From positions 50,984 through 114,983 of the forward strand of contig JBPOID010000005.1 in the NCBI GenBank assembly GCA_052034805.1: a stretch of 64,000 nt of DNA, written 5' to 3'. This document shows, one piece after another, positions 32,816-48,453 of this stretch. The position numbers and the translations under genes were made by a program. This DNA is from Candidatus Tayloriibacteriota bacterium (GTDB lineage Bacteria; Patescibacteriota; Minisyncoccia; Phycocordibacterales; PALSA-1337). Under the pieces are notes generated by a model. It had not been told where the DNA came from and did no database searches. It saw nothing but the letters and a program-made list of their open reading frames with translations. Position 1 is the first letter of the stretch, and each line of letters starts with the position of its first letter.

Positions 32816-33535
32816 ATGTATAGAATAGTACATGGTTTCAGAATAACTAAAAAAAGAAAACATAAGAAAATATTAGGTACACTTTTATTATTATTTATAA
32901 TACTAATATCCAGTATAATATTCTTCTCATCAGGCGATTCTGCAAATATATTATTATCTAATCTATTACTATCATTATTTAGACTTGTTATAGCTTATTT
33001 TATATCTCTAACTTTAGCTATATTGATAGCCATACCGGTAAGCAATACTAGATTTGGAGATTTTATGATACCTGTTTTTGATCTATTACAGAATCTTCCT
33101 TCATTCGCATTAATTCCTATTTTTATATCTTGGCTTGGATATACAAATATTATGACAATAGTATTCGCCGCCACCTCCATCCTTTGGCCAATATTATTTT
33201 ATATATTACATGCCTTAAAGACAGCATCGAAGGATCAAGAAAATGCAGCGAGAATATTCGGTGCAAAAGGTATAAAGAAAGTATTATTTTTTTCTTTACC
33301 TGTATCCTTCCCTGCTATCATCACAGGTTCAATAGTCGGTTTCAGTATTGGCTGGGAAGCTATAATAGGAGTTGAGATTATAGGATTAACGAATGGCATA
33401 GGTTCATTTATAAATAATCCATCACATAATAACAATCTAGTGCTAGGTATATCTGCTTTACTTGTCATAGTATTTCTAATAAACAGATTGGTATGGATGC
33501 CATTATTAAAGAAATCACAATTATATGCAGAATAA
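32816..33535 (+). CDS. ABC transporter permease (SsuC/TauC-like BPD inner membrane component)
   Basis: 6-TM permease with an EAA-like loop; overlaps the downstream ATPase gene. Confidence 0.7.
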   Translation: MYRIVHGFRITKKRKHKKILGTLLLLFIILISSIIFFSSGDSANILLSNLLLSLFRLVIAYFISLTLAILIAIPVSNTRFGDFMIPVFDLLQNLPSFALIPIFISWLGYTNIMTIVFAATSILWPILFYILHALKTASKDQENAARIFGAKGIKKVLFFSLPVSFPAIITGSIVGFSIGWEAIIGVEIIGLTNGIGSFINNPSHNNNLVLGISALLVIVFLINRLVWMPLLKKSQLYAE

Positions 33536-34259
33536 AAATATAGCCGAAATAAAAGATCTTTCTTATTCATATATAAATGAAGAGACTAATGAACATATAA
33601 ATGTAATAAAGGATATATCTTTCCATATAAAAAGTGGAGAATTCTTGTCTATAGTTGGACCATCAGGTTGTGGCAAATCTACATTATTAGAAATAATTGC
33701 AGGATTAATAAAAGCAAAGCATGGAAATATAATTTTGAATACAGATAGAATATCATTTGTATTCCAGAATTTTGCCTTATTCCCTTGGCTTACTGTTAGA
33801 GAAAATATTGAATTTGGTTTAAAGATGAAAAATATTCCAAAAGCAGAGAGAAAAAAGATATCAGAAGAAAAAATAGAAGAAATCGGTTTAAAAGGTTTTG
33901 AAAATAAATATCCAATAGAATTATCAGGAGGAATGAAACAAAGAGTAGGTATTGCAAGAGCATTAGCTATAAATCCAGAATTATTACTTATGGATGAGCC
34001 CTTCTCAAGTCTCGATGTAATCACAGCAGAAAAATTGAGAGCAGAATTACTTGAAATATGGAAAAAATACAAAATGACAATTGTTATGGTTACACATCTA
34101 GTAGATGAGGCGGTAGAATTATCTGATAGAGTATTGATATTCGGTAAAAGACCTACATATATAAAGGAAACTATAACAATAGATTCTGTTAAACCTAGAG
34201 ACAAAAGATCTCATGAGTATTACAAGATAATAGACGATATAACAAATAAAATAGAATAA
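33525..34259 (+). CDS. ABC transporter ATP-binding protein (SsuB/TauB-like)
   Basis: Walker A GPSGCGKST, signature LSGGMKQR, and Walker B LLLMDEP. Confidence 0.85.
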   Translation: MQNKNIAEIKDLSYSYINEETNEHINVIKDISFHIKSGEFLSIVGPSGCGKSTLLEIIAGLIKAKHGNIILNTDRISFVFQNFALFPWLTVRENIEFGLKMKNIPKAERKKISEEKIEEIGLKGFENKYPIELSGGMKQRVGIARALAINPELLLMDEPFSSLDVITAEKLRAELLEIWKKYKMTIVMVTHLVDEAVELSDRVLIFGKRPTYIKETITIDSVKPRDKRSHEYYKIIDDITNKIE

Positions 34260-34819: not shown

Positions 34820-35989
34820 ATGATTCGATCATGGATGGCTGAAGATGGGAGAACGATCTGGGCGGAAGCTCCGGATAAATACCCTCAATGGATGGTTGGT
34901 GTGGCCAAAATTGGGTTTCTAAATTACCTGAATCCCTTCGGAGAAAGGGTTATGTCAGAGAAAGAAGAGCTGAAGCCCGTCTCCAAGGGAGACAAGGACG
35001 GCGAAGACAATATCGCCAAAGCCGGTAACGTTTGGTACAAGCTCGAGGTCAGCAAGAAACTAGCCCTTAAGAAGGGTAAAAAATATATGGTAGAAATCAT
35101 GCCATATGAGATGCCCCCCGTCCCTGGACCAGGAACTACATCACCCACTCCAGTCCCAACAAAAGACTTGTACAGAGTGGACCTCTCGAGGGTGAACAAG
35201 GGAAAGAAAGGGTTTTGGCTTTTTCTATTCATTCTTGCAACCATCATTGTACTCGGAACAATCGGCTACAAGACCTTTCAGTGGTATAAAAACCACAAAA
35301 AAGAATCCGTGCCGATCATGGGTACAAACAGTGTAGGAAATGGCGTAGAACAATTGATCCAGAAAAACCTGGAAATGTCGGGAAAGATTGAGGAGTTGGA
35401 GAAGAAATTGGAAGAGCAAAGGAAGAAAAGCTCTACCAACTCATCGACTTCTTCTATTTATCCCACCCCACCGACGAATTCGACACCAACGAATCTGCCC
35501 ACGAGTGTTTCCCTCACCCACACTACAAATCAAATTGTAGTGACCAATATCAGTCAGGAAAGAGAAAGTCGGGAAAGGATTGATTCTGGCGGGCAAGTTG
35601 TTGTAGTGAACGGAGGTGGAAATAAATTCACCTTCCATAACTATAACGGTAGAAGTAACGGGGACACATACAACACATCACCAAAAGTGATGTGGCCGGA
35701 CGATAGCAGGCCAAATCGTCACTACCCTATTATGGGCGAAAAGGTGGATTTGCCACCTGGTGAAGATTACTGCTATTGTTACCCTACTACTGGAAAGTGG
35801 AGGGTGGACGTATATACTGATGCGGAATCAGTGAAAAGTGCCTACAATGTAGGCACCGAGCAAGAACCTAAATGGGTTCTAACGCGGGATTTCAATCCCA
35901 CTCAAACAGCAGTTGGGCTCAGACTCAAAAATCTGAGTCAAACAAAGATAAGTGTCACATTTGTTCTTACAAGGAAAGCAGGTCCTTGA
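34820..35989 (+). CDS. single-pass membrane protein with a coiled-coil and a Pro/Thr-rich linker (unknown function), GC-rich
   Basis: Central TM segment (FWLFLFILATIIVLGTIGY), then an EELEKKLEEQRKK coiled region and a low-complexity TPPTNSTPTN linker; about 48% GC by eye. Confidence 0.5.
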   Translation: MIRSWMAEDGRTIWAEAPDKYPQWMVGVAKIGFLNYLNPFGERVMSEKEELKPVSKGDKDGEDNIAKAGNVWYKLEVSKKLALKKGKKYMVEIMPYEMPPVPGPGTTSPTPVPTKDLYRVDLSRVNKGKKGFWLFLFILATIIVLGTIGYKTFQWYKNHKKESVPIMGTNSVGNGVEQLIQKNLEMSGKIEELEKKLEEQRKKSSTNSSTSSIYPTPPTNSTPTNLPTSVSLTHTTNQIVVTNISQERESRERIDSGGQVVVVNGGGNKFTFHNYNGRSNGDTYNTSPKVMWPDDSRPNRHYPIMGEKVDLPPGEDYCYCYPTTGKWRVDVYTDAESVKSAYNVGTEQEPKWVLTRDFNPTQTAVGLRLKNLSQTKISVTFVLTRKAGP

Positions 35990-36015
35990 GGAGCGAACTA
36001 CACTAGGGCATGGCG

Positions 36016-36049
36016 CAAGCCATGCCCTTTATTATTTTTATATATGATA
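36016..36049 (+). terminator. intrinsic terminator
   Basis: gggcatggcgcaagccatgccc followed by TTTATTATTTTT. Confidence 0.65.
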
Positions 36050-36201
36050 CTCCAAGCATTAAAAACGCCATTTTAGCTAATAATTTAAGGATATAAATGA
36101 TATTGACTTTATGTCTTATTTATGTTAATATAATAAGAGAAACAAAGAGATCGGTGTTAATAAACAAAAACACTTTTGACAACAAAAAACAGGAGACAAA
36201 A

Positions 36202-37161
36202 ATGAAAATGGTAGAAGAAAATAAGGTACCGAATGGACCGATGGTCCTCGGTATCACAGTGTTTCTGGCTATAATAAGCCTGACACTATTTGTAACAGGG
36301 GTACTCATAGAGATTCCTATGGAATTCTCTATCCCCCTTTCACTAGCCCTTGCAAGTAGCATCTTTTACAAAAAAGTGCTCGGCAATTTCCTAGTCATCG
36401 TACCGGAAAACAAAGCATGGATCATATCCAATGCTTTCAAAGACGAAGAAGTTTCTGAAAATAGTCTCACAGAGACTGGCTATAGAAATATCAAGGCTCA
36501 GAGAGAACTTCAAGCGGGAATACATTTCATATACCCTTGGGAAAGTAAAGCTGAGGAAATCGATATGAAATGGTTCAATTCCATCGGTTCCAAAGAAGAA
36601 GATGGTGGAAACTCTTACACTCTCAAGAACGGACGCACTGTAAAAATTGCGTGGCAAGTCAGAGTAGTACCACTTCCAGGGTTCTTGGTCAACTTCAATC
36701 GAAGCGACAAGAAAGACATCGAGAGAAAGGTAAGAGCTCGAGCCGAAGCCTTCTTCCAAGGATATATCGGTAATCTAGAACTTGTTCAATTTGGAAATGA
36801 ACAAAAGAAAGACATCGAAAAAGCCTTCGAAAATCTATGGGGTGGAGAATCTACTAAAGACGATCAAGAAAAAGAGCTTGGAGTCTGGACTGGTACACCC
36901 GAAGTATTTGATATCAGCAATCCTAAAGATGTTGAGATTCAAATGAACTGGGAAGCCATAATGTTGTCTACCACAACAATTGCAAAGAGAATGGTAGAGG
37001 AATCTGGAAACAAGATGTCCTTCCAAGATGCTATGAGATTGGCTCTAATAGGCCAAGGCAAAGCAAAAATGGAAATGGTGGATGTTGTGGGCCTCCTCGG
37101 AGGAGGAGGTAAAAAAGATCAACAGCAACAACAAAGACAGCCTAAAAAAGGAGGTAAGTGA
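36202..37161 (+). CDS. SPFH/Band-7 (stomatin/HflK-like) domain membrane protein
   Basis: Start moved to the ATG preceded by aggaga (MKMVEEN...). N-terminal TM, then IVPENKAWIISNAF...AGIHFIYPW...RVVPLPGFLVNF, resembling the SPFH core, and a C-terminal coiled/Gly-Gln-rich tail. Confidence 0.45.
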   Translation: MKMVEENKVPNGPMVLGITVFLAIISLTLFVTGVLIEIPMEFSIPLSLALASSIFYKKVLGNFLVIVPENKAWIISNAFKDEEVSENSLTETGYRNIKAQRELQAGIHFIYPWESKAEEIDMKWFNSIGSKEEDGGNSYTLKNGRTVKIAWQVRVVPLPGFLVNFNRSDKKDIERKVRARAEAFFQGYIGNLELVQFGNEQKKDIEKAFENLWGGESTKDDQEKELGVWTGTPEVFDISNPKDVEIQMNWEAIMLSTTTIAKRMVEESGNKMSFQDAMRLALIGQGKAKMEMVDVVGLLGGGGKKDQQQQQRQPKKGGK

Positions 37162-37574
37162 TGGGTACAACAACAAAAGAAGGTGTAATAAAGACCCTGT
37201 CTTTCATTACACTAATTCTCATCATAATAGGGACTGCAACCTATTTTAAATTCAAATACCACTCTAGCGGTGGCATCATGCAGTACATCGTCGGAGATGA
37301 TACGAAACCTCGTCATTCTCTAGTCATCACCGAAGATTGGTCCAAGTCAATCCCCATCAACGTCAACAGTTACCTAAGGGAAGACGAAACCTGGGTAGAA
37401 GTATGCGTGGTGGGAGGCGGTACAAACGGTGACTTCATCTATGATGTTCCTCCGAAAAGCATGAGGGGGAACGACTGGAGGCCACCAGAGCTCAAAGGTA
37501 TATCTCTACGATACCGACTGGCTCCTGGAAAGAACAAAGTTAAGTCAGCAGAAATATTCTATGTTATGAAGTAG
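37158..37574 (+). CDS. small membrane-anchored protein, possibly the NfeD-like partner of the SPFH protein
   Basis: Overlaps the SPFH gene stop (ATGA), has an N-terminal TM and a beta-rich C-terminal domain. The pairing with SPFH is an inference from the known SPFH-NfeD operon arrangement. Confidence 0.3.
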   Translation: MMGTTTKEGVIKTLSFITLILIIIGTATYFKFKYHSSGGIMQYIVGDDTKPRHSLVITEDWSKSIPINVNSYLREDETWVEVCVVGGGTNGDFIYDVPPKSMRGNDWRPPELKGISLRYRLAPGKNKVKSAEIFYVMK

Positions 37575-37591
37575 GGAAACATAGAATGCAA

Positions 37592-37629
37592 AAAGGGCGC
37601 CACATTAGTGAACGCCCTTTCTTTTTATC
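37592..37629 (+). terminator. intrinsic terminator
   Basis: aagggcgccacattagtgaacgccctt followed by TCTTTTTAT. Confidence 0.6.
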
Positions 37630-37640
37630 TATAAAATATT

Positions 37641-37958
37641 CTAGAAAAATGGATCTGGTACTCCTATAGTATTTGCTATAACTCTTATTATTCCATAAGC
37701 ACATACCATAATAAACATACCGACAACACCCCATAATATATGCTTTTGACCTTCTTGTCTTGCACTAGGATCATCACCGCTTCTTATGAGTTTGAATACT
37801 CCTAAAATAAACATAAATACAGTAAATACAAATAAAAGAGTAATAAGAGGTAATACTATAACATTTACTATGTTTGTTATAAGAGGTCCAGCTACAGGAT
37901 TATTTGCGACTTTAGAGAAAGTCTGTGCATAAGCTATATTTGCCATTAAAGCTAACAT
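37641..37958 (-). CDS. small TM-loop-TM protein, VirB2/TrbC-pilin-like architecture (paralog 4, short pre-sequence)
   Basis: AYA|QTF junction, then two hydrophobic helices separated by a charged loop (RSGDDPSARQEGQKHILW). Paralogous to the next three genes. Confidence 0.45.
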   Translation of the reverse strand: MLALMANIAYAQTFSKVANNPVAGPLITNIVNVIVLPLITLLFVFTVFMFILGVFKLIRSGDDPSARQEGQKHILWGVVGMFIMVCAYGIIRVIANTIGVPDPFF

Positions 37959-37967
37959 AGTTATGTA

Positions 37968-38333
37968 TTATATTCCTACTGGATTTGGAAGAGTTGCTGT
38001 TTCGTTTATTTTCTGTGTAGGTGTACGATCTTGTGTTGCAAATGAAGTCTTTAATATATTTACAAGTCCCCAAATAGATAATATAAGGAAAAGTCCTAAT
38101 ACTCCGTAGAATACTGCCCAACCTCCCTTCTTTCTATCGTCTTCGCCACCAGCTATAAGATATCTAACAATACTTATAATAATCCATAGAACAGCAAGAG
38201 ATATGGCTAAAGCAATTATAAGATTTCCTATATTTGTACCCTTTTGTGCTACATCATTTATATTATTTAATTGACTCTGAGCAAAGGCCAAAGATGGCAT
38301 AAAAGCTAAAACAAATGCAATGATTTTTTTCAT
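37968..38333 (-). CDS. small secreted TM-loop-TM protein, VirB2/TrbC-pilin-like architecture (paralog 3)
   Basis: Signal peptide ending AFA|QSQ, then TM1, loop AGGEDDRKKGGW, and TM2. Confidence 0.5.
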   Translation of the reverse strand: MKKIIAFVLAFMPSLAFAQSQLNNINDVAQKGTNIGNLIIALAISLAVLWIIISIVRYLIAGGEDDRKKGGWAVFYGVLGLFLILSIWGLVNILKTSFATQDRTPTQKINETATLPNPVGI

Positions 38334-38420
38334 AAAATAAAAAATAATTAATAAACTTTTCTATATTGTATCAATATACTATGTATAATACAAATACTAT
38401 TGTGGATACAAATGACGATA

Positions 38421-38837
38421 TTATGGCGTACTAGCACTAGGTATAACATTACCTGGATTCAAACTACTATTATTCGATGAACTACCATTAAAAGGCCATG
38501 ATGGTCTACTATTAGGCAAATTAAGAGAATTACCCAGTAAAGCTACCAATCCCCAGAAAGATAATATAACGAAAAATCCTATAGTACTGTATAGAACATA
38601 CATACCAGCTTCCTTTTTATCCTTTTCTGTAAAGAAATATCTATATACATTCCAAATAAAAGTAACTATTGCAAAAGATATAATAAGTTTTATACCTATG
38701 GTCAAATATTCAGTAACCAAAACAGCCACGCATTTCAATGTATAAGGTGTACATGAACTAGATGTTTGCGCTTCACTTATAAATGGCAATGCTAATAATA
38801 GTGATAATAATGCTATTTTGATTATATTCTTTTTCAT
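38421..38837 (-). CDS. small secreted TM-loop-TM protein, VirB2/TrbC-pilin-like architecture (paralog 2)
   Basis: Signal peptide ending SEA|QTSS, then TM1, loop TEKDKKEAGMY, TM2, and a Ser/Asn-rich tail. Confidence 0.5.
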   Translation of the reverse strand: MKKNIIKIALLSLLLALPFISEAQTSSSCTPYTLKCVAVLVTEYLTIGIKLIISFAIVTFIWNVYRYFFTEKDKKEAGMYVLYSTIGFFVILSFWGLVALLGNSLNLPNSRPSWPFNGSSSNNSSLNPGNVIPSASTP

Positions 38838-38854
38838 ATTTTTTATATTATAAT

Positions 38855-39301
38855 TTATTTCTTAAGCAAACTCTCATTTACCAAACCACTAGAAGTAAGA
38901 GTATTCTGTACAACAGAGACTATCAATTTTGCACTTATAAGCACTGCAGTACCTATAACTGCATATAGAAACCATGATTTGGCTTCACTCAATGCTTTAT
39001 CATTACCTTGAGCCATAACGAATTTGAAACCAATCCATATAAACATAAGTACAGCCACTATCATACCGATAAACATAGCCATATCTACTACAGAGAATAA
39101 TAATTCAGTCACACTATTGGCTTTAAGAGGATTACTAAGTGTTGGAAAAACAGAATTATTTATAGGTGAAGTATTATTCAATGATTGTTTAGAACTTGTA
39201 TCATTCAAAGGTTGTTGACTTCCAGATTGAGCAAATACAGGAACAGAACTTATTATGAATAATGTAATTATGATTAATGAGGAAATTAGAAATTTTTTCA
39301 T
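38855..39301 (-). CDS. small secreted TM-loop-TM protein, VirB2/TrbC-pilin-like architecture (paralog 1)
   Basis: Signal peptide ending VFA|QSGS, then TM1, loop AQGNDKALSEAKSW, and TM2. Confidence 0.5.
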   Translation of the reverse strand: MKKFLISSLIIITLFIISSVPVFAQSGSQQPLNDTSSKQSLNNTSPINNSVFPTLSNPLKANSVTELLFSVVDMAMFIGMIVAVLMFIWIGFKFVMAQGNDKALSEAKSWFLYAVIGTAVLISAKLIVSVVQNTLTSSGLVNESLLKK

Positions 39302-39306
39302 ATTTT

Positions 39307-40989
39307 TTATTTTATAAAGGTAGTTACTCCAGAATCACTTTTTGCAATATAATCTACTATAGTTCTCACTCCTATCCACGCTACAAGCATTATTATAAAC
39401 CCAATTGCCGTAGTTACAAATATGGATTTAGCTTTTGATATATTTTTTGATATACCTGTCATATATAGAAGTCCAGCCCAAGCAAACATAGCAGTAGCAA
39501 TAGGAATAGATATTAGGAACATCCATGTTATAAGACCTAATATTGTATCTATAAGAGCTTTGAAATCGCATACTTTATCTCTATATGTCTCTCCCTTTTT
39601 CAATACTCCATCGCATTTTACGAAACCACTATAGTCCAATACAGAAGCCATCATATTGCTTATTGCTGAATGTTTCTTTATCTCTACAGATAAAGGATTT
39701 TGTAATGATAGATCTAATTCCCCACTTGCAGTTTGTATAGCATCATAAACATTAGTTCTACCACTTGTTATTGATTCGATCATTTTCTGGAATATTTGAT
39801 TTGTTCTAGAAGAATTCATATCTAACCAAGATTTAGATATTAGAGCAGCATCATAGAAAATAGATTGATAAGGATCGGATGAACCAGTAGCTATCATATC
39901 TCTTCTTACTGGTGGCAAATATGTGATTTGATTCAAAGATGCCAAAGCACTTGGATCCGTAAGTATTTTGAATATTGTATATACAGAACTTTGATTCTTT
40001 GAAGCTTTCACTATTGATAATCCATACATAGAACCATAATTAACGGAATTTTTTGCATCTCTTATTTGTGGTAATGTTGTTACATCGAAACTAATATTCA
40101 CATTTTTTTGTTTTATATCAAAAAGTTCTGAAGCAAAGCCGAAATAAGTAGCTAATGAGCCAGACAAAAATGCACTTTTTGAATTCGGCAATGATCTATT
40201 CCATGAATAATCTGCATTATTAGGATCAGAAAACTTTGTGAATAATTCTACAGCAGAAGTAGTCAATCTCGAACCAGAATATTGACCATCGCCTAGAGAA
40301 CTTACTAATGCATCACCTTTATTTGAAACAACAGGATTTCCGTATTGAAGAATAAGAGAACCTAATATTTCTTTTGCATTATTTATATTTGCAAATTCAC
40401 CCATAGCTATCGCTGTTCTACGTATATTAGAATTAGAATCTTTTGTATTTATTTTTGATATTAAATTATCAAATTCATCCCAATATTTCGGAGGAAGGGC
40501 TATCCTTGCATTTGTAAATATATCTTTATTCCAATACATTACTAGAGGATCAATAGTAAAAGGTATAGCCAAAGCTCCATCATTCGATAAATAAAGTTCG
40601 GCTTGAGCTATATATGTATTTTTGAAATCTCTTTCGGAGAGAATACTATAAGGTATAGGTAAAACCTTATCTCTATGTCTCAATATCATATTCTGAGGTA
40701 TAAGTATTGCATCAGGACCAGCACCACGAGCCAAAGCTTCTATAAAATCTTGATCGAATTTATCTTTTGATTTCTGTGTATAGTTTATAGATATTTGGAA
40801 ATTACTTGTGCTGTTTATTTTCTGCATTAGATTATTCACCGATTCAGCTGGAAAAGTTCCCCATATCGATATAACTGGTAATTCTGTATTTGTACTTTCT
40901 GATTTGTAAGTAGCGAAAAGCGCAACACCAACTATTATACAAATAACGAAAATTGCTATTGTTATGATTTGAAATTTACTAGTATTCAT
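39307..40989 (-). CDS. membrane-tethered extracellular solute-binding-protein-like domain fused to a C-terminal TM-loop-TM module homologous to the four small proteins
   Basis: N-terminal TM; a large domain with SBP family-1-like AIPFTIDPLVMYWNKDIF; C-terminus MFAWAGLLYMTGISKNISKAKSIFVTTAIGFIIMLVAWIG aligns with MFIWIGFKFVMAQGNDKALSEAKSWFLYAVIGTAVLISAKLIV of ORF 38855..39301. Confidence 0.55.
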   Translation of the reverse strand: MNTSKFQIITIAIFVICIIVGVALFATYKSESTNTELPVISIWGTFPAESVNNLMQKINSTSNFQISINYTQKSKDKFDQDFIEALARGAGPDAILIPQNMILRHRDKVLPIPYSILSERDFKNTYIAQAELYLSNDGALAIPFTIDPLVMYWNKDIFTNARIALPPKYWDEFDNLISKINTKDSNSNIRRTAIAMGEFANINNAKEILGSLILQYGNPVVSNKGDALVSSLGDGQYSGSRLTTSAVELFTKFSDPNNADYSWNRSLPNSKSAFLSGSLATYFGFASELFDIKQKNVNISFDVTTLPQIRDAKNSVNYGSMYGLSIVKASKNQSSVYTIFKILTDPSALASLNQITYLPPVRRDMIATGSSDPYQSIFYDAALISKSWLDMNSSRTNQIFQKMIESITSGRTNVYDAIQTASGELDLSLQNPLSVEIKKHSAISNMMASVLDYSGFVKCDGVLKKGETYRDKVCDFKALIDTILGLITWMFLISIPIATAMFAWAGLLYMTGISKNISKAKSIFVTTAIGFIIMLVAWIGVRTIVDYIAKSDSGVTTFIK

Positions 40990-41510
40990 GATTTTTTAAA
41001 AATAATACCATAATGATGATCACCTGCATCGAATTTCTTTTCAATAGAAAATCCTGCTTTTTCGAATATTCCTTCGGCAAACATTTGGGGTACTAGAGAT
41101 TTCGGACTCAAAGGACTACCAGAATCCCAATCTATGACCAATAATTTTCCTCCTGGTTTTATTATTCTTTTTATTTCTAAAGCGAGATTATCTCTATTTT
41201 CTGGAGATATTTGGAATAGAATATTAGAAAGTATAACCCTATCAGCTATAGCTTCACGAACCTTTGTGCCTCCTATTTTCTCTATATTCCCCCAGATAAT
41301 CTCTATATTATATAAATTAAGATTATTTGCTGTTCTTTTTATTTTATCTAGTAATTCTTGTTGAACATCTATAGCATAAACTCTGCCACTAGGGCCAACA
41401 GCCTTGGCGACTTCTATAGTATAAAATCCAGATCCAGCACCGAGATCAACAACTTTCATACCAGGCATAAGTCCCAGTTCTAAAATATTCTTTTTTGGAT
41501 CAGAGAACAT
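40986..41510 (-). CDS. class I SAM-dependent methyltransferase
   Basis: Motif I VVDLGAGSGFYT and motif II-like VYAIDV. Its stop overlaps the start of the downstream SBP-fusion gene (ATGA). Confidence 0.75.
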   Translation of the reverse strand: MFSDPKKNILELGLMPGMKVVDLGAGSGFYTIEVAKAVGPSGRVYAIDVQQELLDKIKRTANNLNLYNIEIIWGNIEKIGGTKVREAIADRVILSNILFQISPENRDNLALEIKRIIKPGGKLLVIDWDSGSPLSPKSLVPQMFAEGIFEKAGFSIEKKFDAGDHHYGIIFKKS

Positions 41511-41601
41511 GAGTTTATTATACCCTTTTGTGTATTATTGAGCTATAAAGATTTGTGTATAAACTTGAACAATATCTCTTTTTAGGGTATTTTAATAGTA
41601 T

Positions 41602-41672
41602 TGCCGGCTCGTCTAATGGTAGGACACATCCCTCTGGAGGATGTTATTGGGGTTCGAGTCCCTGGCCGGCAG
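41602..41672 (+). tRNA. tRNA-Gln (anticodon CTG)
   Basis: Acceptor tgccggc/gccggca, D-arm TCGTCTAATGGTAGGAC, anticodon stem catcc/ggatg with loop CTCTGGA, and T-loop TTCGAGT. Confidence 0.8.
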
Positions 41673-41746
41673 CAATGGAAATTTGGAACGACTAACGAAA
41701 GAGCGAGAGACGATTATATATGATATAATTTAATCTATAAATATAT

Positions 41747-42307
41747 ATGAACAAAAAAATAATTTGGGGGATTATTATTGTGGTTATATTAATTCTAGGA
41801 ATAGTGACGGTGCAGAGAGGATATTTGAAACACTTAAATCGCCCAGACTTGGATAATAAGACTGTAACCGCTCCAGTAAGTAACTGGAAAATTTATTCAT
41901 ACCCTAATAAATACCAATTTAGCTATCCTGCAAATACACAGATTGAAGAAACGAAAGAGAGTGGGATTTCAGAAATCACTGTAATATTTACTGAAGACTG
42001 GATGAATTCATTCGATGTCACAATTCCACCTGAAGTTGCGTATTGTTCCTCCAATCCTTATAAAAATTATATAACCTTAAAAGGTTCGACTGTTACAGAA
42101 AATAAAGTGACTATTAATGGAAACGAGTATCGACACTTGCAACATGTTGATACATCGCTTAAAACGGTCACTTATAACGAAGATAAATATTATCTAGTTA
42201 AAGATAATACCTGTTATATGCTTACTGTTAAGACCAATAATAAAGTCGACCCCATCATCAAAACAAATATTGAAAAAATACTTTCGACATTTACATTAGT
42301 GAATTAG
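41747..42307 (+). CDS. membrane-anchored hypothetical protein
   Basis: N-terminal TM followed by a beta-rich domain; no motif I recognise. Confidence 0.45.
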   Translation: MNKKIIWGIIIVVILILGIVTVQRGYLKHLNRPDLDNKTVTAPVSNWKIYSYPNKYQFSYPANTQIEETKESGISEITVIFTEDWMNSFDVTIPPEVAYCSSNPYKNYITLKGSTVTENKVTINGNEYRHLQHVDTSLKTVTYNEDKYYLVKDNTCYMLTVKTNNKVDPIIKTNIEKILSTFTLVN

Positions 42308-42316
42308 AAAAAATCA

Positions 42317-42745
42317 ATGAATAAAGGCATCAACATAGGGATCGTATTTTTTTCAGTCGGAATCTTATTGACGTCCTACATCCTAATCAAAAATATTCCT
42401 TTGAGTAAAAATGGAGTTGTCACTGAGGGAACAGTTATTCAGCTTATTACAAAAAGAAATCCCAATTATCGTAACACTCGCTGGATTACCCAGAATATAC
42501 CCATTATTAGCTTCAGGACTGCGGATAATCATGAATTTAGGACTCAAGGATGTTCTGATTGTTATTATATAGGCGAGAAAGTGTCTATTGTTTATGATCC
42601 AAAAAATCCTACAAATGCAGAGGTTAACTCGAAGCGGTTATTTATTGAGTCGATTTATTATTTAGTGGGTTTTATTATTTTCCTTATTATTTTTATAAGG
42701 CTAAAAACCAAAATACGCCACAACCCAAAATATTCTATAATATAA
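42317..42745 (+). CDS. DUF3592-like protein (TM, small beta domain, TM)
   Basis: Architecture and the GTVIQL...KVSIVYDPKNP segment resemble DUF3592. Confidence 0.45.
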   Translation: MNKGINIGIVFFSVGILLTSYILIKNIPLSKNGVVTEGTVIQLITKRNPNYRNTRWITQNIPIISFRTADNHEFRTQGCSDCYYIGEKVSIVYDPKNPTNAEVNSKRLFIESIYYLVGFIIFLIIFIRLKTKIRHNPKYSII

Positions 42746-42748
42746 CCC

Positions 42749-43195
42749 ATGAAAGAAATCACTCTTCACAATCAATGGATTATCGAAGCTCCTATAGATA
42801 ATGTATTCAAAATAATGACTGATTTTGAAAAATTCCCAGAACATTTTCCTAAAGTAGCTGAATCAATACGTATAGAAAAACGTGATGAGAATTATCTAGA
42901 AATAGAAGCAATTGCGAAATCATTTGGTAAGAAATTCAAAGTAAAAATGAAAACCCAAATTCTTCCTAATAGAGGTTTTATATCAGATAATAATAGCCAT
43001 GAATTCGGAACTTCTGGACATGAGGAATTATTACTTTCTCCACATGAAAAAGGAACTCTAATAGACTATACATATAAAGTTACAATTCATAAAAGATGGT
43101 TAAGTATTTTAGCTACACCACTTATACGTTGGTATTCTATGAAATATTGGGAGAAAGCAGTTATTGATGAGTTGAAGAAAATTTTGAAGAAATAA
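42749..43195 (+). CDS. SRPBCC (START/Bet v1-like, polyketide cyclase-like) family protein
   Basis: 148 aa with the alternating beta pattern and a C-terminal helix typical of SRPBCC (...WIIEAPIDNVFKIMTDFEKFPEHFP...). Confidence 0.5.
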   Translation: MKEITLHNQWIIEAPIDNVFKIMTDFEKFPEHFPKVAESIRIEKRDENYLEIEAIAKSFGKKFKVKMKTQILPNRGFISDNNSHEFGTSGHEELLLSPHEKGTLIDYTYKVTIHKRWLSILATPLIRWYSMKYWEKAVIDELKKILKK

Positions 43196-43241
43196 TACTT
43201 ACCCACAATGCACAATATATAACATACTATATAATATACTG

Positions 43242-44129
43242 ATGAATTTTAGAGGGTTACATTTTCACCACTTAAAAGATAAGAACTTTCATAGATTATT
43301 ATTTATAACTATTGCTATTCTAGGTTCTATAAATATTTATTATACATATAACTATGTTGTCTATGATCCACTACGAGAAGATTTTAATAAAAATATAGGT
43401 AAGAAATATAATTTAGAATTAGATTTACAGAAAAAAGAAGAGGAGGTAAAAACTGGGTCCATAAAGATACCCATACTTATATATCATAGTGTTAGAGATC
43501 ATATAAATGGTGAAGATAATATGCTCAAATATTATACAGTTTCGCCAGAATCCTTTACCAAGCAAATGCAATATCTAAAAGATAATAATTATTCTGTATT
43601 AAGTTTGGATTTTATAGCTGATGCATTAGAAGAAAATATACCAGTTCCAGAAAAAAGTGTTGCTATAACATTTGATGATGGATGGAGAAATCAATACGTG
43701 AACGCATATCCTATACTTAGAAGATTCGGCTATACAGCTACTTTCTTTATAATCACTAATACTATAGACAAACCCCATTTCTTCTCTTGGGATCAAGTTA
43801 GACTGATGAATAATAACGGAATGACAATAGGTAGCCATACTGTATTTCATCCTTTCTTACCAGAAATAGAAAATCCAAAAGAATTACAAAAAGAATTAGT
43901 AAATAGTAAAAAAGTTATAGAAGAAAAACTAGGACATACTGTAGATATATTCGCATATCCTTATGGACATTATAATGATGAAGTGGTAAATGCAGTAAAA
44001 TCTGCCGGATACAAACTAGCTCGTTCTACACATAAAGGTATATATCATACAAAATCAGATCTATTCACAATGAAAGGTATAGAAGTTACAGATGATATGA
44101 AAAGATTTGCGATTGATATAAATAATTAG
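43242..44129 (+). CDS. polysaccharide deacetylase (NodB homology domain), membrane anchored
   Basis: TFDDGW motif, a HTVFHP His box and the following NodB motifs. Confidence 0.8.
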   Translation: MNFRGLHFHHLKDKNFHRLLFITIAILGSINIYYTYNYVVYDPLREDFNKNIGKKYNLELDLQKKEEEVKTGSIKIPILIYHSVRDHINGEDNMLKYYTVSPESFTKQMQYLKDNNYSVLSLDFIADALEENIPVPEKSVAITFDDGWRNQYVNAYPILRRFGYTATFFIITNTIDKPHFFSWDQVRLMNNNGMTIGSHTVFHPFLPEIENPKELQKELVNSKKVIEEKLGHTVDIFAYPYGHYNDEVVNAVKSAGYKLARSTHKGIYHTKSDLFTMKGIEVTDDMKRFAIDINN

Positions 44130-44164
44130 ATTGATAAAAATAATTAGAAAATCAAGACGATATA

Positions 44165-44836
44165 CTAAGATGAAACTGATATTTCATAATCTCTATGGAA
44201 AATTATTTGGGATATTCTGTATATTCCATGAACAATAAAGAATGCAGACAGAACATCTATAGTGTAATGCACATGTGCTAATAGAACTACTATTCCGAAC
44301 ATTATAGATAATAATATAAAAATAGTTCTTATCCATTTTTTATCCCAATACAGAAGCGCCATGAGAAATGGCAATCCAGTATGACCAGAGAAAAATGAAT
44401 CATTACCCAAAAACAATGATTCATATAGATTAGTACCTATAATATCTTGTATGAAATTCTGTGAACTAGGATTGATTATCATATGTTCAGGGAAAGCTCC
44501 TATATGTGTAAGAACTATAAATAAAGATCTTATAATAATGAAAAGTGCTATTGTCTTTACGGTGAAAGGAATCCTTTTTGGATCATATAGACAAACAAAA
44601 GCAATAAATAAAGTCATGAGCATTGCCCCATTTACGAATATCCCATCCACATCATAAACTCTTATATTACTTAGAATAAGATCAGTTACAGGACTACTAG
44701 CGCTTCTGGTAGCGTATTCTACTGCATAGATATTTATTATAAAACCAGCAGCTAATATAACGAGAGATATTATTAGAGATAATAAATAATGTTTATCTTT
44801 AAAGTGTATTTTATATTGTCTTATAGAGTTCTTCAT
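44165..44836 (-). CDS. PAP2-like (acid phosphatase/phosphotransferase superfamily) membrane protein
   Basis: Trimmed to the ATG preceded by gaagagg (MKNSIRQY...). FSGHTGL (PSGH-like) and LLAHVHYTIDV (H...D box) motifs on a polytopic scaffold. Confidence 0.45.
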   Translation of the reverse strand: MKNSIRQYKIHFKDKHYLLSLIISLVILAAGFIINIYAVEYATRSASSPVTDLILSNIRVYDVDGIFVNGAMLMTLFIAFVCLYDPKRIPFTVKTIALFIIIRSLFIVLTHIGAFPEHMIINPSSQNFIQDIIGTNLYESLFLGNDSFFSGHTGLPFLMALLYWDKKWIRTIFILLSIMFGIVVLLAHVHYTIDVLSAFFIVHGIYRISQIIFHRDYEISVSS

Positions 44837-44895
44837 TGCCTCTTCGTTTACAATAAAAGATTGACCTATTATATAATAAAAGATACAATTATTCA

Positions 44896-45480
44896 ATGTT
44901 ATCTTGGTTTATTTCTCTTATACTGACTTACAAATATCCATTACTTTTGATTATTGCTATACCAGAAGGTCCAGTTATAATGCTTTTATCTGGAGCATTG
45001 CTCAAACTTGGTTTTCTTTCTTTTTGGCCAGCATATATTTGTTTAATGATCGGCGATATGATAGCCGATATTATGTGGTATTGGATAGGATACTTCGGTG
45101 GAATGAAATTCGTTGATAGATTCGGTAAATATTTTGGAATAACTAGACATAGAATAGAAATCGTCAGTTTGTTCTATCACAAATATCATGAAAGAATATT
45201 ATTTATATCAAAGATAACTACAGGTTTCGGTTTTGCACTTATCACTCTTATTACAGCTGGATTGGTAAAGATACCATTCAAGAAATATTTTATATTGAAT
45301 TTCCTAGGTGGATTTATATGGGCAGGATTGCTCATGTCTCTGGGTTATACTTTCCAACATCTTTATGTGACTATAGACAATATACTAGGACGTATTACTA
45401 TTATAGGTGTAAGTGCCTTACTTATTATCTTGATAATAAATATTGGAATTAGAATACGTAATAAAATAGAGAAAACATAA
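44896..45480 (+). CDS. DedA/VTT-domain membrane protein
   Basis: PEGPVIMLLSGALL...GDMIADIMWYWIGYFGG is characteristic of the DedA family. Confidence 0.7.
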   Translation: MLSWFISLILTYKYPLLLIIAIPEGPVIMLLSGALLKLGFLSFWPAYICLMIGDMIADIMWYWIGYFGGMKFVDRFGKYFGITRHRIEIVSLFYHKYHERILFISKITTGFGFALITLITAGLVKIPFKKYFILNFLGGFIWAGLLMSLGYTFQHLYVTIDNILGRITIIGVSALLIILIINIGIRIRNKIEKT

Positions 45481-45493
45481 TAAAATAAAAAAT

Positions 45494-46210
45494 ATGAAAA
45501 AAGTAAGTGTGATAATACCAGCTCATAATGAAGAAAATGATATAGGAAAAACATTAGAAGCTTTGCTTGTTCAAGATTATAAAGATATAGAAATAATAGT
45601 AATAGATAATGCTAGTACAGACAAAACTTCTGAAGTAGCTAGAAGATATAAAAGTGTAACTGTTCTAAACGAAAGCAGAAAGGGTACTAATTTTGCCCTA
45701 GAATGTGGAAGAAAGCAGACAACTGGAGAAATAATAGCTAGACTAGATGCGGATTGTCTACCAGAGAAGAATTGGATAAGTCAGGGTGTCAAAAACTTTG
45801 AAGATAACAATGTCGTCGGACTTACTGGACCTTATGATTATTATGATGCTGATAATTTCTTTAGATATACTTCCCTATTTTTCCAAAAATATATATACAG
45901 ATTCACAAGTTGGCTATTCCAATTGCTTCATATAGGAGCAATAATGACTGGTGGTAATAGTATGATGAAAGCCAAAGAATTAGATCTTATGGGTGGCTTT
46001 GATACATCTTTTACATTTTATGGAGATGATACAGATGTTGCAAAAAGATTGTCGAAATATGGACGTGTAGCATTTGACCCTAATTTCGTATTGAAAACTT
46101 CAGCCAGAAGATTCAAAAAACAAGGTGAATTCAAGATATTCTTCCTTTATTTCTATTATTTCTTAAAAACAACATTCTATAGACCCAAGAAAAATCTAAA
46201 AAATAATTAG
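45494..46210 (+). CDS. family 2 glycosyltransferase
   Basis: VSVIIPAHNEE...IIVIDNASTDKT and a DAD/DxD box. Confidence 0.8.
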   Translation: MKKVSVIIPAHNEENDIGKTLEALLVQDYKDIEIIVIDNASTDKTSEVARRYKSVTVLNESRKGTNFALECGRKQTTGEIIARLDADCLPEKNWISQGVKNFEDNNVVGLTGPYDYYDADNFFRYTSLFFQKYIYRFTSWLFQLLHIGAIMTGGNSMMKAKELDLMGGFDTSFTFYGDDTDVAKRLSKYGRVAFDPNFVLKTSARRFKKQGEFKIFFLYFYYFLKTTFYRPKKNLKNN

Positions 46211-46231
46211 GAGAATAGTTAGAAAAATAAA

Positions 46232-46774
46232 ATGGATGAGATAAAAAACAATACAGCAGAACAATCTCCACATTTGATAAAGTTATTTATAGCAATAGGA
46301 GCTACTCTTTATTTTTTATATTATATTAGAACTTCTACTGATTGGCATTTTATTGATAATGTAAATCTCATAATACATGAAGCCGGACATACTCTATGCT
46401 TTTTCTTTGGTCAATTTATACAAATACTAGCCGGATCAGCATTGCAAATATTATTTCCTACTACATTTTCATTATATTTTTATATAAAAGGAGATTATTA
46501 TTCTAGTTCATTATTACTTTTCTGGATTGGGCAAAATATAATAAATGTATCTATATATGTATCAGATTCTATAATTATGCAATTGCCATTATTAGGTGGT
46601 GACAATGTTATTCATGATTGGAATTATATATTAAGCAGACTTGGAATATTACAATACGCCAATAGTATTGGATCATTTATGTTTCTATTAGGAATTATTA
46701 CTATAATAATAGCTTCTTATTTTTCTATAACTACATCACAGAGAGAAAAAGAAAAAGTTAATAACTTAATATAA
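46232..46774 (+). CDS. small polytopic membrane protein with an HExxH motif (putative membrane metallopeptidase)
   Basis: IIHEAGHTLCF sits within or near a TM segment. Family not recognised. Confidence 0.35.
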   Translation: MDEIKNNTAEQSPHLIKLFIAIGATLYFLYYIRTSTDWHFIDNVNLIIHEAGHTLCFFFGQFIQILAGSALQILFPTTFSLYFYIKGDYYSSSLLLFWIGQNIINVSIYVSDSIIMQLPLLGGDNVIHDWNYILSRLGILQYANSIGSFMFLLGIITIIIASYFSITTSQREKEKVNNLI

Positions 46775-46802
46775 TTTTTATTAATTAGGATGATATAATT
46801 GT

Positions 46803-47246
46803 TTGATTATGAATACACAAAAAACAACATTAAGTATATTACGCTATGCAATGTCATTTATTTTCTTATGGGCATTCATAGATAAATTATTCGGTTTGGG
46901 ATTTGCAACATTGGGTAAAGATGCTTGGATAAATGGTGGTTCTCCAACATATGGTTTCTTGATGTTTGCTACAAAGGGACCTTTGGCCCCATTTTTCAAA
47001 AGTCTAGCAGGCATGCCTGTTATAGATTGGATATTCATGCTTGGACTTCTAGGAATCGGTTTATCTTTATTATTAAATAGAGCTTTAATATGGGGAGCAT
47101 TATCAGCTGTAGTAATGCTTAGTCTTATGTGGTTTGCAGTTTTACCACCAGCAAATAATCCTATAATAGATGAGCATACAATATATATTCTAGTTATGAT
47201 TATTCTAGCTATTTATCATAAAGAAGAGAAAAAATTGGATAAATAA
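46803..47246 (+). CDS. DoxX-family membrane protein
   Basis: About 4 TM segments with a LRYAMSFIFLWAFIDKLFG start, typical of DoxX. Confidence 0.5.
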   Translation: MIMNTQKTTLSILRYAMSFIFLWAFIDKLFGLGFATLGKDAWINGGSPTYGFLMFATKGPLAPFFKSLAGMPVIDWIFMLGLLGIGLSLLLNRALIWGALSAVVMLSLMWFAVLPPANNPIIDEHTIYILVMIILAIYHKEEKKLDK

Positions 47247-47471
47247 TGCATATAGTGTATATTAGATTGATATAAATTATATATAATAAATAAAAAATAT
47301 GGCAAAAAGAGCAAGTGCAAGTACAAATAGAAAAACCTCTCGTTCAAAGAAGACAAAGAAGCGTTTAGCAATAAAATACGCTCGTCTATTGGCAAAGAAG
47401 AAGAGATAAATAGAAGAGATAGAAAAAGTTAATAAAATAAAGAGGAGCTAATAAATAAAAGCTAATGATGT

Positions 47472-47500
47472 AAAACCCCGCAAGAACTGCGGGGTTTTAT
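47472..47500. terminator. bidirectional intrinsic terminator hairpin
   Basis: aaaaccccgcaagaactgcggggtttt, lying between the convergent ends. Confidence 0.6.
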
Positions 47501-47532
47501 AATAAAAGCGTATTCTAACTGAAGAAGACCAA

Positions 47533-48453
47533 TCAAAATACTGAAATCAAATATTCATCTATATTTCTCTGATCAAGATCATAGAAATTTTTGCCTTGAT
47601 TATGCAAATCTGTTGCTAGTTTTACACCGACGAAACGCCAATGCCAAGGTTCAAATACATAGAATTTATTATCTTTAGGATAAGAAAGTATAAAGCCATA
47701 TTTATAAGCATTAGCTAAAAGCCAATTATAAGCTGTGGTTTTGTCGAAGCCATCTAATTCCCCACCAAGTCCTACAGTTATAAAATCTACTGCTGTACCT
47801 AGCTGATGTTCACTGTAACCCTGATCTGCTGAGAATTGATTGGCTGTTCCAGCTCCATATACAACTTTATATTTACTTTTCAAAGCTTGTTGTTCACTGA
47901 ATGATCTATATCCAGATTCTACAAATATAGTTACACCATTTACCCTAGCATCATCTATGAGATGTTTGAGATATGGCCATGTATCTGCTTGTATCTTCAC
48001 AACTTTTGTATCACTGTATTTATAATCAGAAGTAACTTCTTCTAATCTCGCTGGTGCATAATATTCATTCAAGAAAAAGACTTTTGAATATTTCTGTAGA
48101 AGTTGTTTATCTGTTTTACTTAATTTCTGCAAAGTATCTACTGTACCTGTTATGGAACCGACTTGTTGTTCATAAGAACCTATTTTCTGAGCTATAAAAC
48201 CTACATTCTGTCTTTCCTCATTTATAGCATTGGTAAGAGTGTTATGAGTTTTTGCTAAATTTTCTTTTATTATATTTGTTGTAGATGATACATTGCTTTC
48301 AAGTACTACAAGATCTGATGAAAGAGAATCTATTTTATTTGTTAGATTTTTGATTTTATAAGAATCATAAGCAAAAGCGATAAATACTACTATAGTAAAT
48401 ATAGAGATTATCAAATCTTTTTTATCTATAGGTTTTATATCTTTATTTTTCAT
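47533..48453 (-). CDS. M15B/VanY-like D-Ala-D-Ala carboxypeptidase, membrane anchored
   Basis: SGYRSFSEQ, SEHQLGTAVDF and EPWHWRFVG Zn-binding boxes. Confidence 0.75.
   Translation of the reverse strand: MKNKDIKPIDKKDLIISIFTIVVFIAFAYDSYKIKNLTNKIDSLSSDLVVLESNVSSTTNIIKENLAKTHNTLTNAINEERQNVGFIAQKIGSYEQQVGSITGTVDTLQKLSKTDKQLLQKYSKVFFLNEYYAPARLEEVTSDYKYSDTKVVKIQADTWPYLKHLIDDARVNGVTIFVESGYRSFSEQQALKSKYKVVYGAGTANQFSADQGYSEHQLGTAVDFITVGLGGELDGFDKTTAYNWLLANAYKYGFILSYPKDNKFYVFEPWHWRFVGVKLATDLHNQGKNFYDLDQRNIDEYLISVF

Follow-up and report, generated by a model that had tools for sequence, protein, structure and literature searches.

The window analysed here, a 64,000-nucleotide stretch of contig JBPOID010000005.1 from a Candidatus Tayloriibacteriota bacterium, carries an operon that is predicted to encode a methyltransferase, a MalE-like oligosaccharide-binding protein and an array of VirB2-like pilins of the kind associated with type IV secretion systems (T4SSs). 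This operon is a core, chromosomal element of Paceibacteria-type Patescibacteria (Candidate Phyla Radiation). Two of its properties are new: the conserved succession of methyltransferase, binding protein and an array of five pilin types (P1 to P5, named by their position), and the repeated joining of the binding protein with P1 into one polypeptide, the form that is found in the window.

As described in an earlier reading of the letters alone (the original prediction), six tightly spaced, co-oriented minus-strand open reading frames occupy positions 37641-41510. The stop codon of the methyltransferase gene overlaps the start codon of the following 560-aa gene (ATGA), also as described, and the remaining intergenic gaps measure 5, 17, 87 and 9 nt in gene order. 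The features are the following:

40986-41510, minus strand: predicted class I S-adenosylmethionine (SAM)-dependent methyltransferase, 174 aa, first gene of the operon (Pfam Methyltransf_31)
39307-40989, minus strand: predicted fusion protein, 560 aa, binding protein plus P1 pilin module (Pfam, AlphaFold2, Foldseek)
39310-39627, minus strand: P1 pilin module within the fusion, residues 455-560 (alignment with first-position pilins)
38855-39301, minus strand: predicted P2 pilin, 148 aa (PF18895, PF04956, AlphaFold2)
38421-38837, minus strand: predicted P3 pilin, 138 aa (PF18895 near the cut-off, hydropathy, positional orthologs)
37968-38333, minus strand: predicted P4 pilin, 121 aa (PF18895, hydropathy)
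37641-37958, minus strand: predicted P5 pilin, 105 aa (PF18895; NF045849 below the cut-off)
37593-37622, no strand: GC-rich hairpin AGGGCG...CGCCCT with a T-run after it, at the point where the P5 gene and a 138-aa gene converge (read from the sequence)

The conservation of the operon was analysed in 24 related Paceibacteria-type loci from GTDB species representatives, plus two metagenome loci. The gene order recurs in the related genomes: methyltransferase, binding protein and two to seven pilin genes follow one another on the same strand in 23 of the 24 GTDB loci and in both metagenome loci, with five as the commonest number of pilin genes (11/24). The gyrA gene lies directly upstream in 19 loci, and the downstream side is variable (MurJ, or IF-2 and RbfA). 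Where gyrA has been separated from the operon, as in the window and in loci L001 and L003, the methyltransferase gene still adjoins the binding-protein gene. Identity to the window proteins in the six five-gene loci compared is 44-74% for the methyltransferase, 37-61% for the binding protein and 26-58% for the pilins. These values show the components diverging in step. The operon is vertically inherited; the binding protein and the pilin set are passed on, and probably expressed, as one unit. Chance can be excluded because Pfam E-values lie between 1e-5 and 7e-12 and the operon recurs in 23 of 24 loci. Homologs of the operon proteins are labelled Patescibacteria, Paceibacterota, Parcubacteria, Taylorbacteria or Kaiserbacteria. 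Several operon-bearing metagenome-assembled genomes have 'Candidatus Saccharibacteria' in their titles, yet their genes are matched by genomes of the Paceibacteria type.

The pilins of the array are not interchangeable copies. When the best cross-genome pilin matches were tabulated among twelve five-gene arrays, with 132 best matches per position, the match fell on the same position in 88/132 cases for position 1, 110/132 for position 2 and 108/132 for position 5. The matrix is diagonal for these three positions, and positions 3 and 4 interchange. Furthermore, 111 of 123 pilins are nearer to a pilin of another genome than to a paralog of their own array. Pairwise identity within the window array is 20-36%, except for one 17-residue local match at 41%. 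Each type also has its own signature: a signal peptide and a Cys...Cys loop in P1; a signal peptide, a low-complexity stretch and an NPL motif in P2; RYF...WGLVNIL and variable tails in P3 and P4; and HILWG...GMFIM, with no signal peptide, in P5, which is the best-conserved type after P2. The comparison points to five anciently diverged types in a fixed order, with types 3 and 4 interchangeable. The original prediction had presented the small proteins as paralogs of one module; the shared hairpin family is borne out, and the description undersells the antiquity and order of the types. Positional orthology and type-specific signatures suggest that the pilins are distinct subunits of one assembly, a pattern that fits this arrangement better than antigenic or host-range variants.

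The assignment of the small proteins to a VirB2/TrbC-like family holds at the level of Pfam profiles. The gathering cut-off of PF18895 (T4SS_pilin) is 26.6 bits, and it is exceeded by P2 (45.6), P4 (34.4) and P5 (32.2), with P3 falling 0.9 bits short (25.7) and the P1 module below it as well (22.4, residues 481-539 of the 560-aa protein). For PF04956 (TrbC/VirB2), P2 scores exactly the cut-off of 27.9 bits, and lower values are obtained for P4 (19.9) and for P3 and P5 (about 13.5). P5 also scores 35.7 bits against NF045849 (Mbov_0395 pilin-like conjugal transfer protein), under its cut-off of 40. P1 and P2 orthologs carry precomputed PF18895 annotations, many P2 orthologs carry PF04956 in addition, and some P2 homologs bear the NCBI/JGI names 'pilin' or 'VirB2 component'. 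Another homolog, P0183, which is 86% identical to P2 (38855-39301), is named 'Sec-independent protein secretion pathway component TatC' by JGI, an evident misannotation. A holin, spanin or immunity-protein identity was considered and rejected: the PHROGs scans of the pilins returned none, and no unrelated Pfam family scored above its cut-off.

Signal peptides were called by hydropathy and the (-3,-1) rule, and a signal peptide, two transmembrane (TM) helices and a short basic loop are found in P2, P3 and P4. P2 consists of a signal peptide (VFA|Q), a disordered Ser/Thr/Asn-rich stretch, the NPL motif and the helical hairpin. In P3 the signal peptide (SEA|Q) and a hairpin bearing RYF...WGLV motifs are accompanied by two Cys and by a C-terminal tail rich in Ser, Asn and Pro. 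P4, which resembles P3 most (36% identity), combines a signal peptide (AFA|Q) with a hairpin in which the motifs are RYL...WGLVNIL. P5 is a two-TM hairpin with neither a charged n-region nor a hydrophobic h-region, and its orthologs open almost at TM1. In the P1 module the hairpin is present and the binding protein takes the place of the signal peptide. The original prediction had given all four small proteins a signal peptide ending in AxA|Q. The signal peptide is recovered in the 148-, 138- and 121-aa proteins and is missing from the 105-aa protein; the site is AxA in two of them (VFA, AFA), SxA in one (SEA) and absent from the 105-aa protein. The N-terminal Gln left after cleavage, proposed as a shared trait, is not conserved in the orthologs.

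The predicted structures agree with the hairpin that had been expected. The P2 model obtained with AlphaFold2 shows a signal helix, disorder over residues 24-50 and a hairpin (64-96 and 101-137) with a predicted local distance difference test (pLDDT) score >90, and the hairpins in the models of P2 and of the 560-aa protein have pLDDT values of 80-97. The TM helices are as expected and the hairpin loops are Lys/Arg-rich. The P1 module reads as a mature N-terminus (LDYSGFVKCDG...CDF, the Cys-loop), TM1, a Lys-rich loop and TM2, and it is orthologous to stand-alone PF18895 pilins. This agrees with the earlier suggestion that one module exists both free and fused to an ectodomain. The 51 stand-alone P1 homologs are 125-185 aa long, share 40-65% identity and mostly carry PF18895. 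The mature extracellular N-terminus of P1 holds a conserved Cys pair (C...CDF), and P3 of the window has two Cys (SSSCTPYTLKC); both pairs may form disulfide loops, a feature that would be noteworthy on the surface of a monoderm.

The 560-aa protein scores 60 bits against each of the Pfam families SBP_bac_1 and SBP_bac_8 (cut-offs 26 and 27). Its AlphaFold2 model, built on a 110-sequence alignment, has a mean pLDDT of 89.5, with values >90 over residues 40-430, and comprises a TM helix (about 5-30), a two-lobe ectodomain (about 40-430), a low-confidence linker (about 431-475) and the P1 hairpin (476-510 and 514-548). The top Foldseek match of the ectodomain is 4r9f, the mannooligosaccharide-binding protein CpMnBP1 (E 2e-22), followed by Atu4361 with sucrose or maltotriose and by MalE proteins (E about 1e-19). 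As modelled, the ectodomain has the fold of MalE/CUT1-type oligosaccharide-binding proteins, with 15-19% identity to the solved proteins. The family comprises 1067 clusters (50% identity) at E <=1e-30. The ectodomain resembling a solute-binding protein, as previously described, is confirmed by the profiles and the fold, and the conservation of the TM helix points to its N-terminal anchoring.

The N-terminal membrane anchoring of binding proteins is common in monoderms. In this family the anchor is under strong conservation: the top-residue fraction over residues 4-27 is 0.73, compared with 0.69 for the domain. The near-invariant residues (K5, F6, Q7, F14, I18, G21, V22, F25, A26, T27 and K29) lie mostly on one helical face. 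By contrast, the pilin signal peptides have no consensus. The one-sided conservation, set against these signal-like pilin N-termini, is the reason why the helix of the binding protein looks like a functional membrane helix that packs on partners and not like a disposable signal. Since the helix is as conserved as the domain, the ectodomain of the fusion would be tethered to the membrane at both ends.

Most homologs of the binding protein are about 430 aa long and end where the linker of the window protein starts. In these unfused loci the next gene encodes a P1 pilin with an ordinary signal peptide, often with an ATGA overlap. In the window protein, a 22-residue non-hydrophobic segment, NPLSVEIKKHSAISNMMASV, stands in place of the P1 signal peptide, and the junction falls exactly at the mature P1 N-terminus, LDYSGFVKCDG. 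Fusions occur in lineages with unrelated linkers, namely P0001, P0002 and P0004; P0071, P0075, L003 and perhaps P0247; and P0251. The first two of these lineages are seen in many independent assemblies; P0251 is known from a single 1.9 kb contig, and P0251 and P0357 both lie on contigs <2 kb. The unfused form is the norm, with only 2 fused proteins among the 150 best cluster representatives. In an outgroup-rooted neighbour-joining tree of one domain the root is unfused, the fused proteins form 3-4 separate lineages, and at least 3-4 state changes are needed. The comparison indicates that the fusion arose at least twice independently. Because the fusions are independent, persistent and topologically consistent, they suggest a physical partnership between the binding protein and P1.

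It could be argued that the two halves of the operon are unrelated neighbours, with the binding protein serving an ATP-binding cassette (ABC) importer encoded elsewhere, the pilins serving the T4SS, and both adjacency and fusions being accidents of a compact genome. Patescibacteria genomes are gene-dense, ATGA-type overlaps ease read-through fusion, and the P0251 lineage consists of that one short contig. However, 23 of 24 loci retain the adjacency although flanks have been rearranged, and at least two fusion lineages, found in many independent assemblies, persist through 35-50% sequence divergence. Moreover, each fusion is matched in topology and joined exactly at the mature P1 N-terminus. 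This explanation is therefore considered highly improbable.

It is proposed, with moderate confidence, that the pilins and the binding protein form a hetero-oligomeric, membrane-proximal assembly that works with a T4SS encoded elsewhere and captures a glycan at contact with the host. The coupling of binding protein and pilin is much more secure than this functional reading. The binding protein would dock on P1 in unfused systems too, and P1 to P5 would be different subunits of one hetero-oligomer and not antigenic variants. The conserved TM helix would keep the binding protein in the membrane, so that the assembly would be a receptor or base module close to the membrane and not a long free pilus with the protein at its tip. 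The T4SS encoded elsewhere in most Patescibacteria (VirB4 and partners) would build the assembly or work with it, and the ligand would be a conserved host-derived glycan or oligosaccharide captured at host-cell contact. The topology is consistent with this arrangement: the ectodomain and the N-terminus of P1 face outwards and the hairpin loop, rich in Lys and Arg, faces inwards.

The original prediction left undecided whether the proteins form a filament or a membrane scaffold. The data lean to a membrane-tethered complex, because the TM helix of the binding protein is as conserved as its domain. The filament would be a conjugative-type pilus in which P2 to P5 build a VirB2-like fibre and P1 carries the binding protein outside, as a lectin for host glycans in epibiotic attachment. 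Both termini of the pilins face the outer surface in the solved F- and T-pili, and an N-terminal fusion could be tolerated in such a fibre. The proteins belong to the VirB2/TrbC family, and one abundant subunit with several specialised ones would resemble sets of major and minor pilins. Patescibacteria T4SSs have also been credited with the potential to form pili in a review (PMC12857230). A pilus is nevertheless unlikely. The double membrane tether of the fusion weakens it, since the strongly conserved TM helix would have to leave the membrane together with the hairpin. Furthermore, the binding protein is about as conserved as a housekeeping protein in the six five-gene loci (42-61% identity), which would be odd for an adhesin exposed to host variation.

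Several results weigh against the proposal of a membrane-proximal assembly working with a T4SS. When the P2 model was compared with the PDB by Foldseek, no match reached E <=0.001 and only insignificant helical hairpins appeared, and a profile of 61 P2 homologs found no pilin among the PDB sequences; the homology with VirB2 thus rests on Pfam profiles near their thresholds. The 64 kb window, in which every open reading frame of at least 350 aa is housekeeping or family-less, has no gene for a VirB4-, VirD4- or VirB6-like protein, and no T4SS ATPase or channel gene occurs in the 24 loci up to a distance of about 8 kb from the operon, in agreement with the earlier observation that such genes are not nearby. 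The link with the T4SS is consequently one of family only. In addition, the N-terminal helix of the binding protein may be cleaved after the conserved FA|T, in which case display on a pilus would be feasible, and the place of the methyltransferase in the operon could reflect co-transcription without shared function.

Distance from the secretion genes is common in Patescibacteria, since only 1135 of the 1948 assemblies that hold both VirB2-like pilins and VirB4 have a pilin gene near virB4 (Quinonero-Coronel et al. 2025, PMC12102498). In the same study VirB4 was present in 2417 of 3035 Patescibacteria genomes, and 441 arrays of 2-11 tandem VirB2-like genes were described in 383 Patescibacteria assemblies, with a mean within-array identity of 25% (PMC12102498). 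The pilin array that the Saccharibacterium Southlakia epibionticum carries within its T4SS cluster is essential (Wang et al. 2023, PMC10633639; PMC12857230). T4SS pilins are among the highest-expressed unknown genes in cultured Paceibacterales (PMC10936435).

Transport partners of the binding protein were also sought. Neither the window nor any of the 24 loci has a CUT1-type (MalF/MalG) permease or ATPase gene next to that of the binding protein. The closest ABC pair, a permease and an ATPase at 32816-34259 on the plus strand, is of the NitT/TauT type (SaoP/SaoA-like, under the curated cut-offs). It has tRNA genes on both flanks and no adjoining binding-protein gene, and it is missing at this position in L001. 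Its NitT/TauT type and its lack of synteny in relatives led to its rejection as a partner.

The lack of a neighbouring permease leaves room for a binding-protein-dependent conduit, in which the 11 TM helices of the binding protein and the five hairpins would import a host oligosaccharide or glycolipid with no ABC permease, and the methyltransferase would act on the imported compound. The one-sided conservation of the TM helix is suggestive of packing between membrane helices, and the methyltransferase finds its best matches, each under its cut-off, among enzymes that act on small molecules. Relatives of the T4SS can import material, as in the ComB system of H. pylori and the archaeal Ced system, and they would offer a precedent by analogy. 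However, the operon has no energy-coupling component and VirB2-like hairpins are not known as solute channels, which makes a conduit of this kind quite improbable. A broader possibility, also distinctly doubtful, is that the binding protein and the five hairpins constitute an unrecognised binding-protein-dependent membrane machine, either a receptor and entry port on the T4SS-like apparatus of Patescibacteria or a stand-alone conduit, with which these metabolically dependent cells would capture a host glycan.

The 174-aa protein is assigned by its Pfam scores (Methyltransf_31, 61.3 bits; Methyltransf_25, 54.3; Methyltransf_11, 47.1; all above cut-off) to the generic class I SAM-dependent methyltransferases, and it is predicted to be cytoplasmic. 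Its closest solved structure is 3dh0, an uncharacterised SAM methyltransferase from structural genomics (E 8e-20). No specific NCBIfam family cut-off was reached, the best matches at this level being small-molecule enzymes such as ArsM and UbiE-like proteins. In 23 of 24 related loci the gene immediately precedes that of the binding protein, and this synteny suggests that the enzyme belongs to the module. The earlier idea of a modifying enzyme dedicated to the operon products is consistent with the synteny, and nothing points to its substrate; the target would be a pilin loop or the ligand.

The window has a G+C content of about 30%, ten tRNA genes and the housekeeping genes for ClpB, GyrA, TopA, IF-2, SerRS, HisRS, FtsA, FtsZ and ParB. 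The operon probably ends at the hairpin of 37593-37622, which would act as an intrinsic terminator in both directions. A scan for consensus promoters and terminators in the window stayed at background level and did not pick up this hairpin, because its loop exceeds 8 nt.

Three plus-strand genes at 34820-37574 (389, 354 and 138 aa) converge on the pilin operon and have no Pfam, NCBIfam or meaningful PHROG match. Their G+C content is 0.39-0.40, compared with about 0.30 around them, and they directly follow tRNA-Lys and tRNA-Leu. Homologs of the 389- and 138-aa proteins were seen in the closest relative alone (L001/L002), and the 354-aa protein has no homolog in any of the fetched loci. Genes of similar size trail the array in L001 and L003, and the three genes were considered as part of the system; this was rejected, given that the 354-aa protein has no homolog there and the other two recur in the closest relative only.

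On the other side, about 7 kb of plus-strand genes (41600-48450) separate the methyltransferase gene from gyrA (48488-50938). This segment contains tRNA-Gln, three small proteins of no family (41747-43195) and a polysaccharide deacetylase, and is probably a lineage-specific insertion. In three related loci, murJ, encoding the lipid II flippase, follows the array on the same strand (L007 12041-13720, L010 11865-13544, L026 8601-10271), an adjacency that may be a link with envelope biogenesis or a coincidence. Two others (L016 8-1747, L022 1070-3067) carry CHASE2-adenylate/guanylate cyclase genes, a few kb away on the upstream side of the block formed by gyrA, methyltransferase and binding protein.

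The operon and the fusion provide a concrete experimental handle on T4SS pilin function in Patescibacteria. The T4SS and its pilin array are essential in the one genetically tractable Patescibacterium (PMC10633639, PMC12857230). The repeated fusion names a likely direct partner in the Rosetta-stone manner, and the conserved operon, with its fixed order of subunits, strengthens this. Testable hypotheses follow on the ligand of the binding protein, on the contact between binding protein and P1, and on the role of the methyltransferase. If the binding-protein-dependent membrane machine were to exist, it would give the first concrete substrate-side handle on T4SS and pilin function in Patescibacteria. 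In this class at least, the multiple pilins would be distinct subunits, in contrast with the antigenic or host-range variation suggested in the literature.

Four known systems can be compared with the operon. CUT1 binding proteins (MalE; CpMnBP1, 4r9f) share the fold and the Pfam families of the window protein. They differ from it in that the window protein has no adjacent permease or ATPase genes, lies in a pilin operon and belongs to a family sometimes fused C-terminally to a two-TM pilin hairpin.

The sets of minor pilins and tip adhesins in type IV pili and type II secretion pseudopili may be compared with the array as an analogy and not as homologs. The likeness would lie in several distinct small subunits in a fixed order, with a binding module on one of them. 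The array differs in belonging to an unrelated family, in lacking a class III signal peptide or PilD site and in having a different assembly machinery.

The VirB2/TrbC pilins of diderm T4SSs (PF04956) are closer, sharing the signal peptide, the two hydrophobic helices and the short basic loop, with P2 at the gathering score. However, the host of the window operon is a monoderm, its mature proteins have disordered extracellular extensions and one member has no signal peptide. No TraF/TraX-like cyclisation or acetylation genes and no VirB5-type tip protein were seen, and no solved pilin was matched in the fold and sequence searches made with P2.

Finally, the VirB2 arrays of Patescibacteria (PMC12102498, PMC10633639) belong to the same family and likewise consist of tandem divergent pilins (20-36% identity in the window, 25% on average in the reported arrays), at a chromosomal location and with no relaxase or conjugation context. 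The four free genes and one fused module of the window fall within the reported range of 2-11. The VirB2-like reading is right but already known, and the suggestion of a new or orphan pilin family does not stand, since PF18895 exists and tandem arrays have been described (PMC12102498). The operon, the positional types and the fusion are absent from PMC12102498 and PMC10633639 (the term 'solute-binding' occurs 0 times in PMC12102498), and no description of a link or fusion between a binding protein and VirB2 was found in the searchable literature. The window array differs from those described in lying outside a T4SS cluster, in being preceded by a methyltransferase and a MalE-like binding protein, and in being composed of five positional ortholog types, the first of which is fused to the binding protein.

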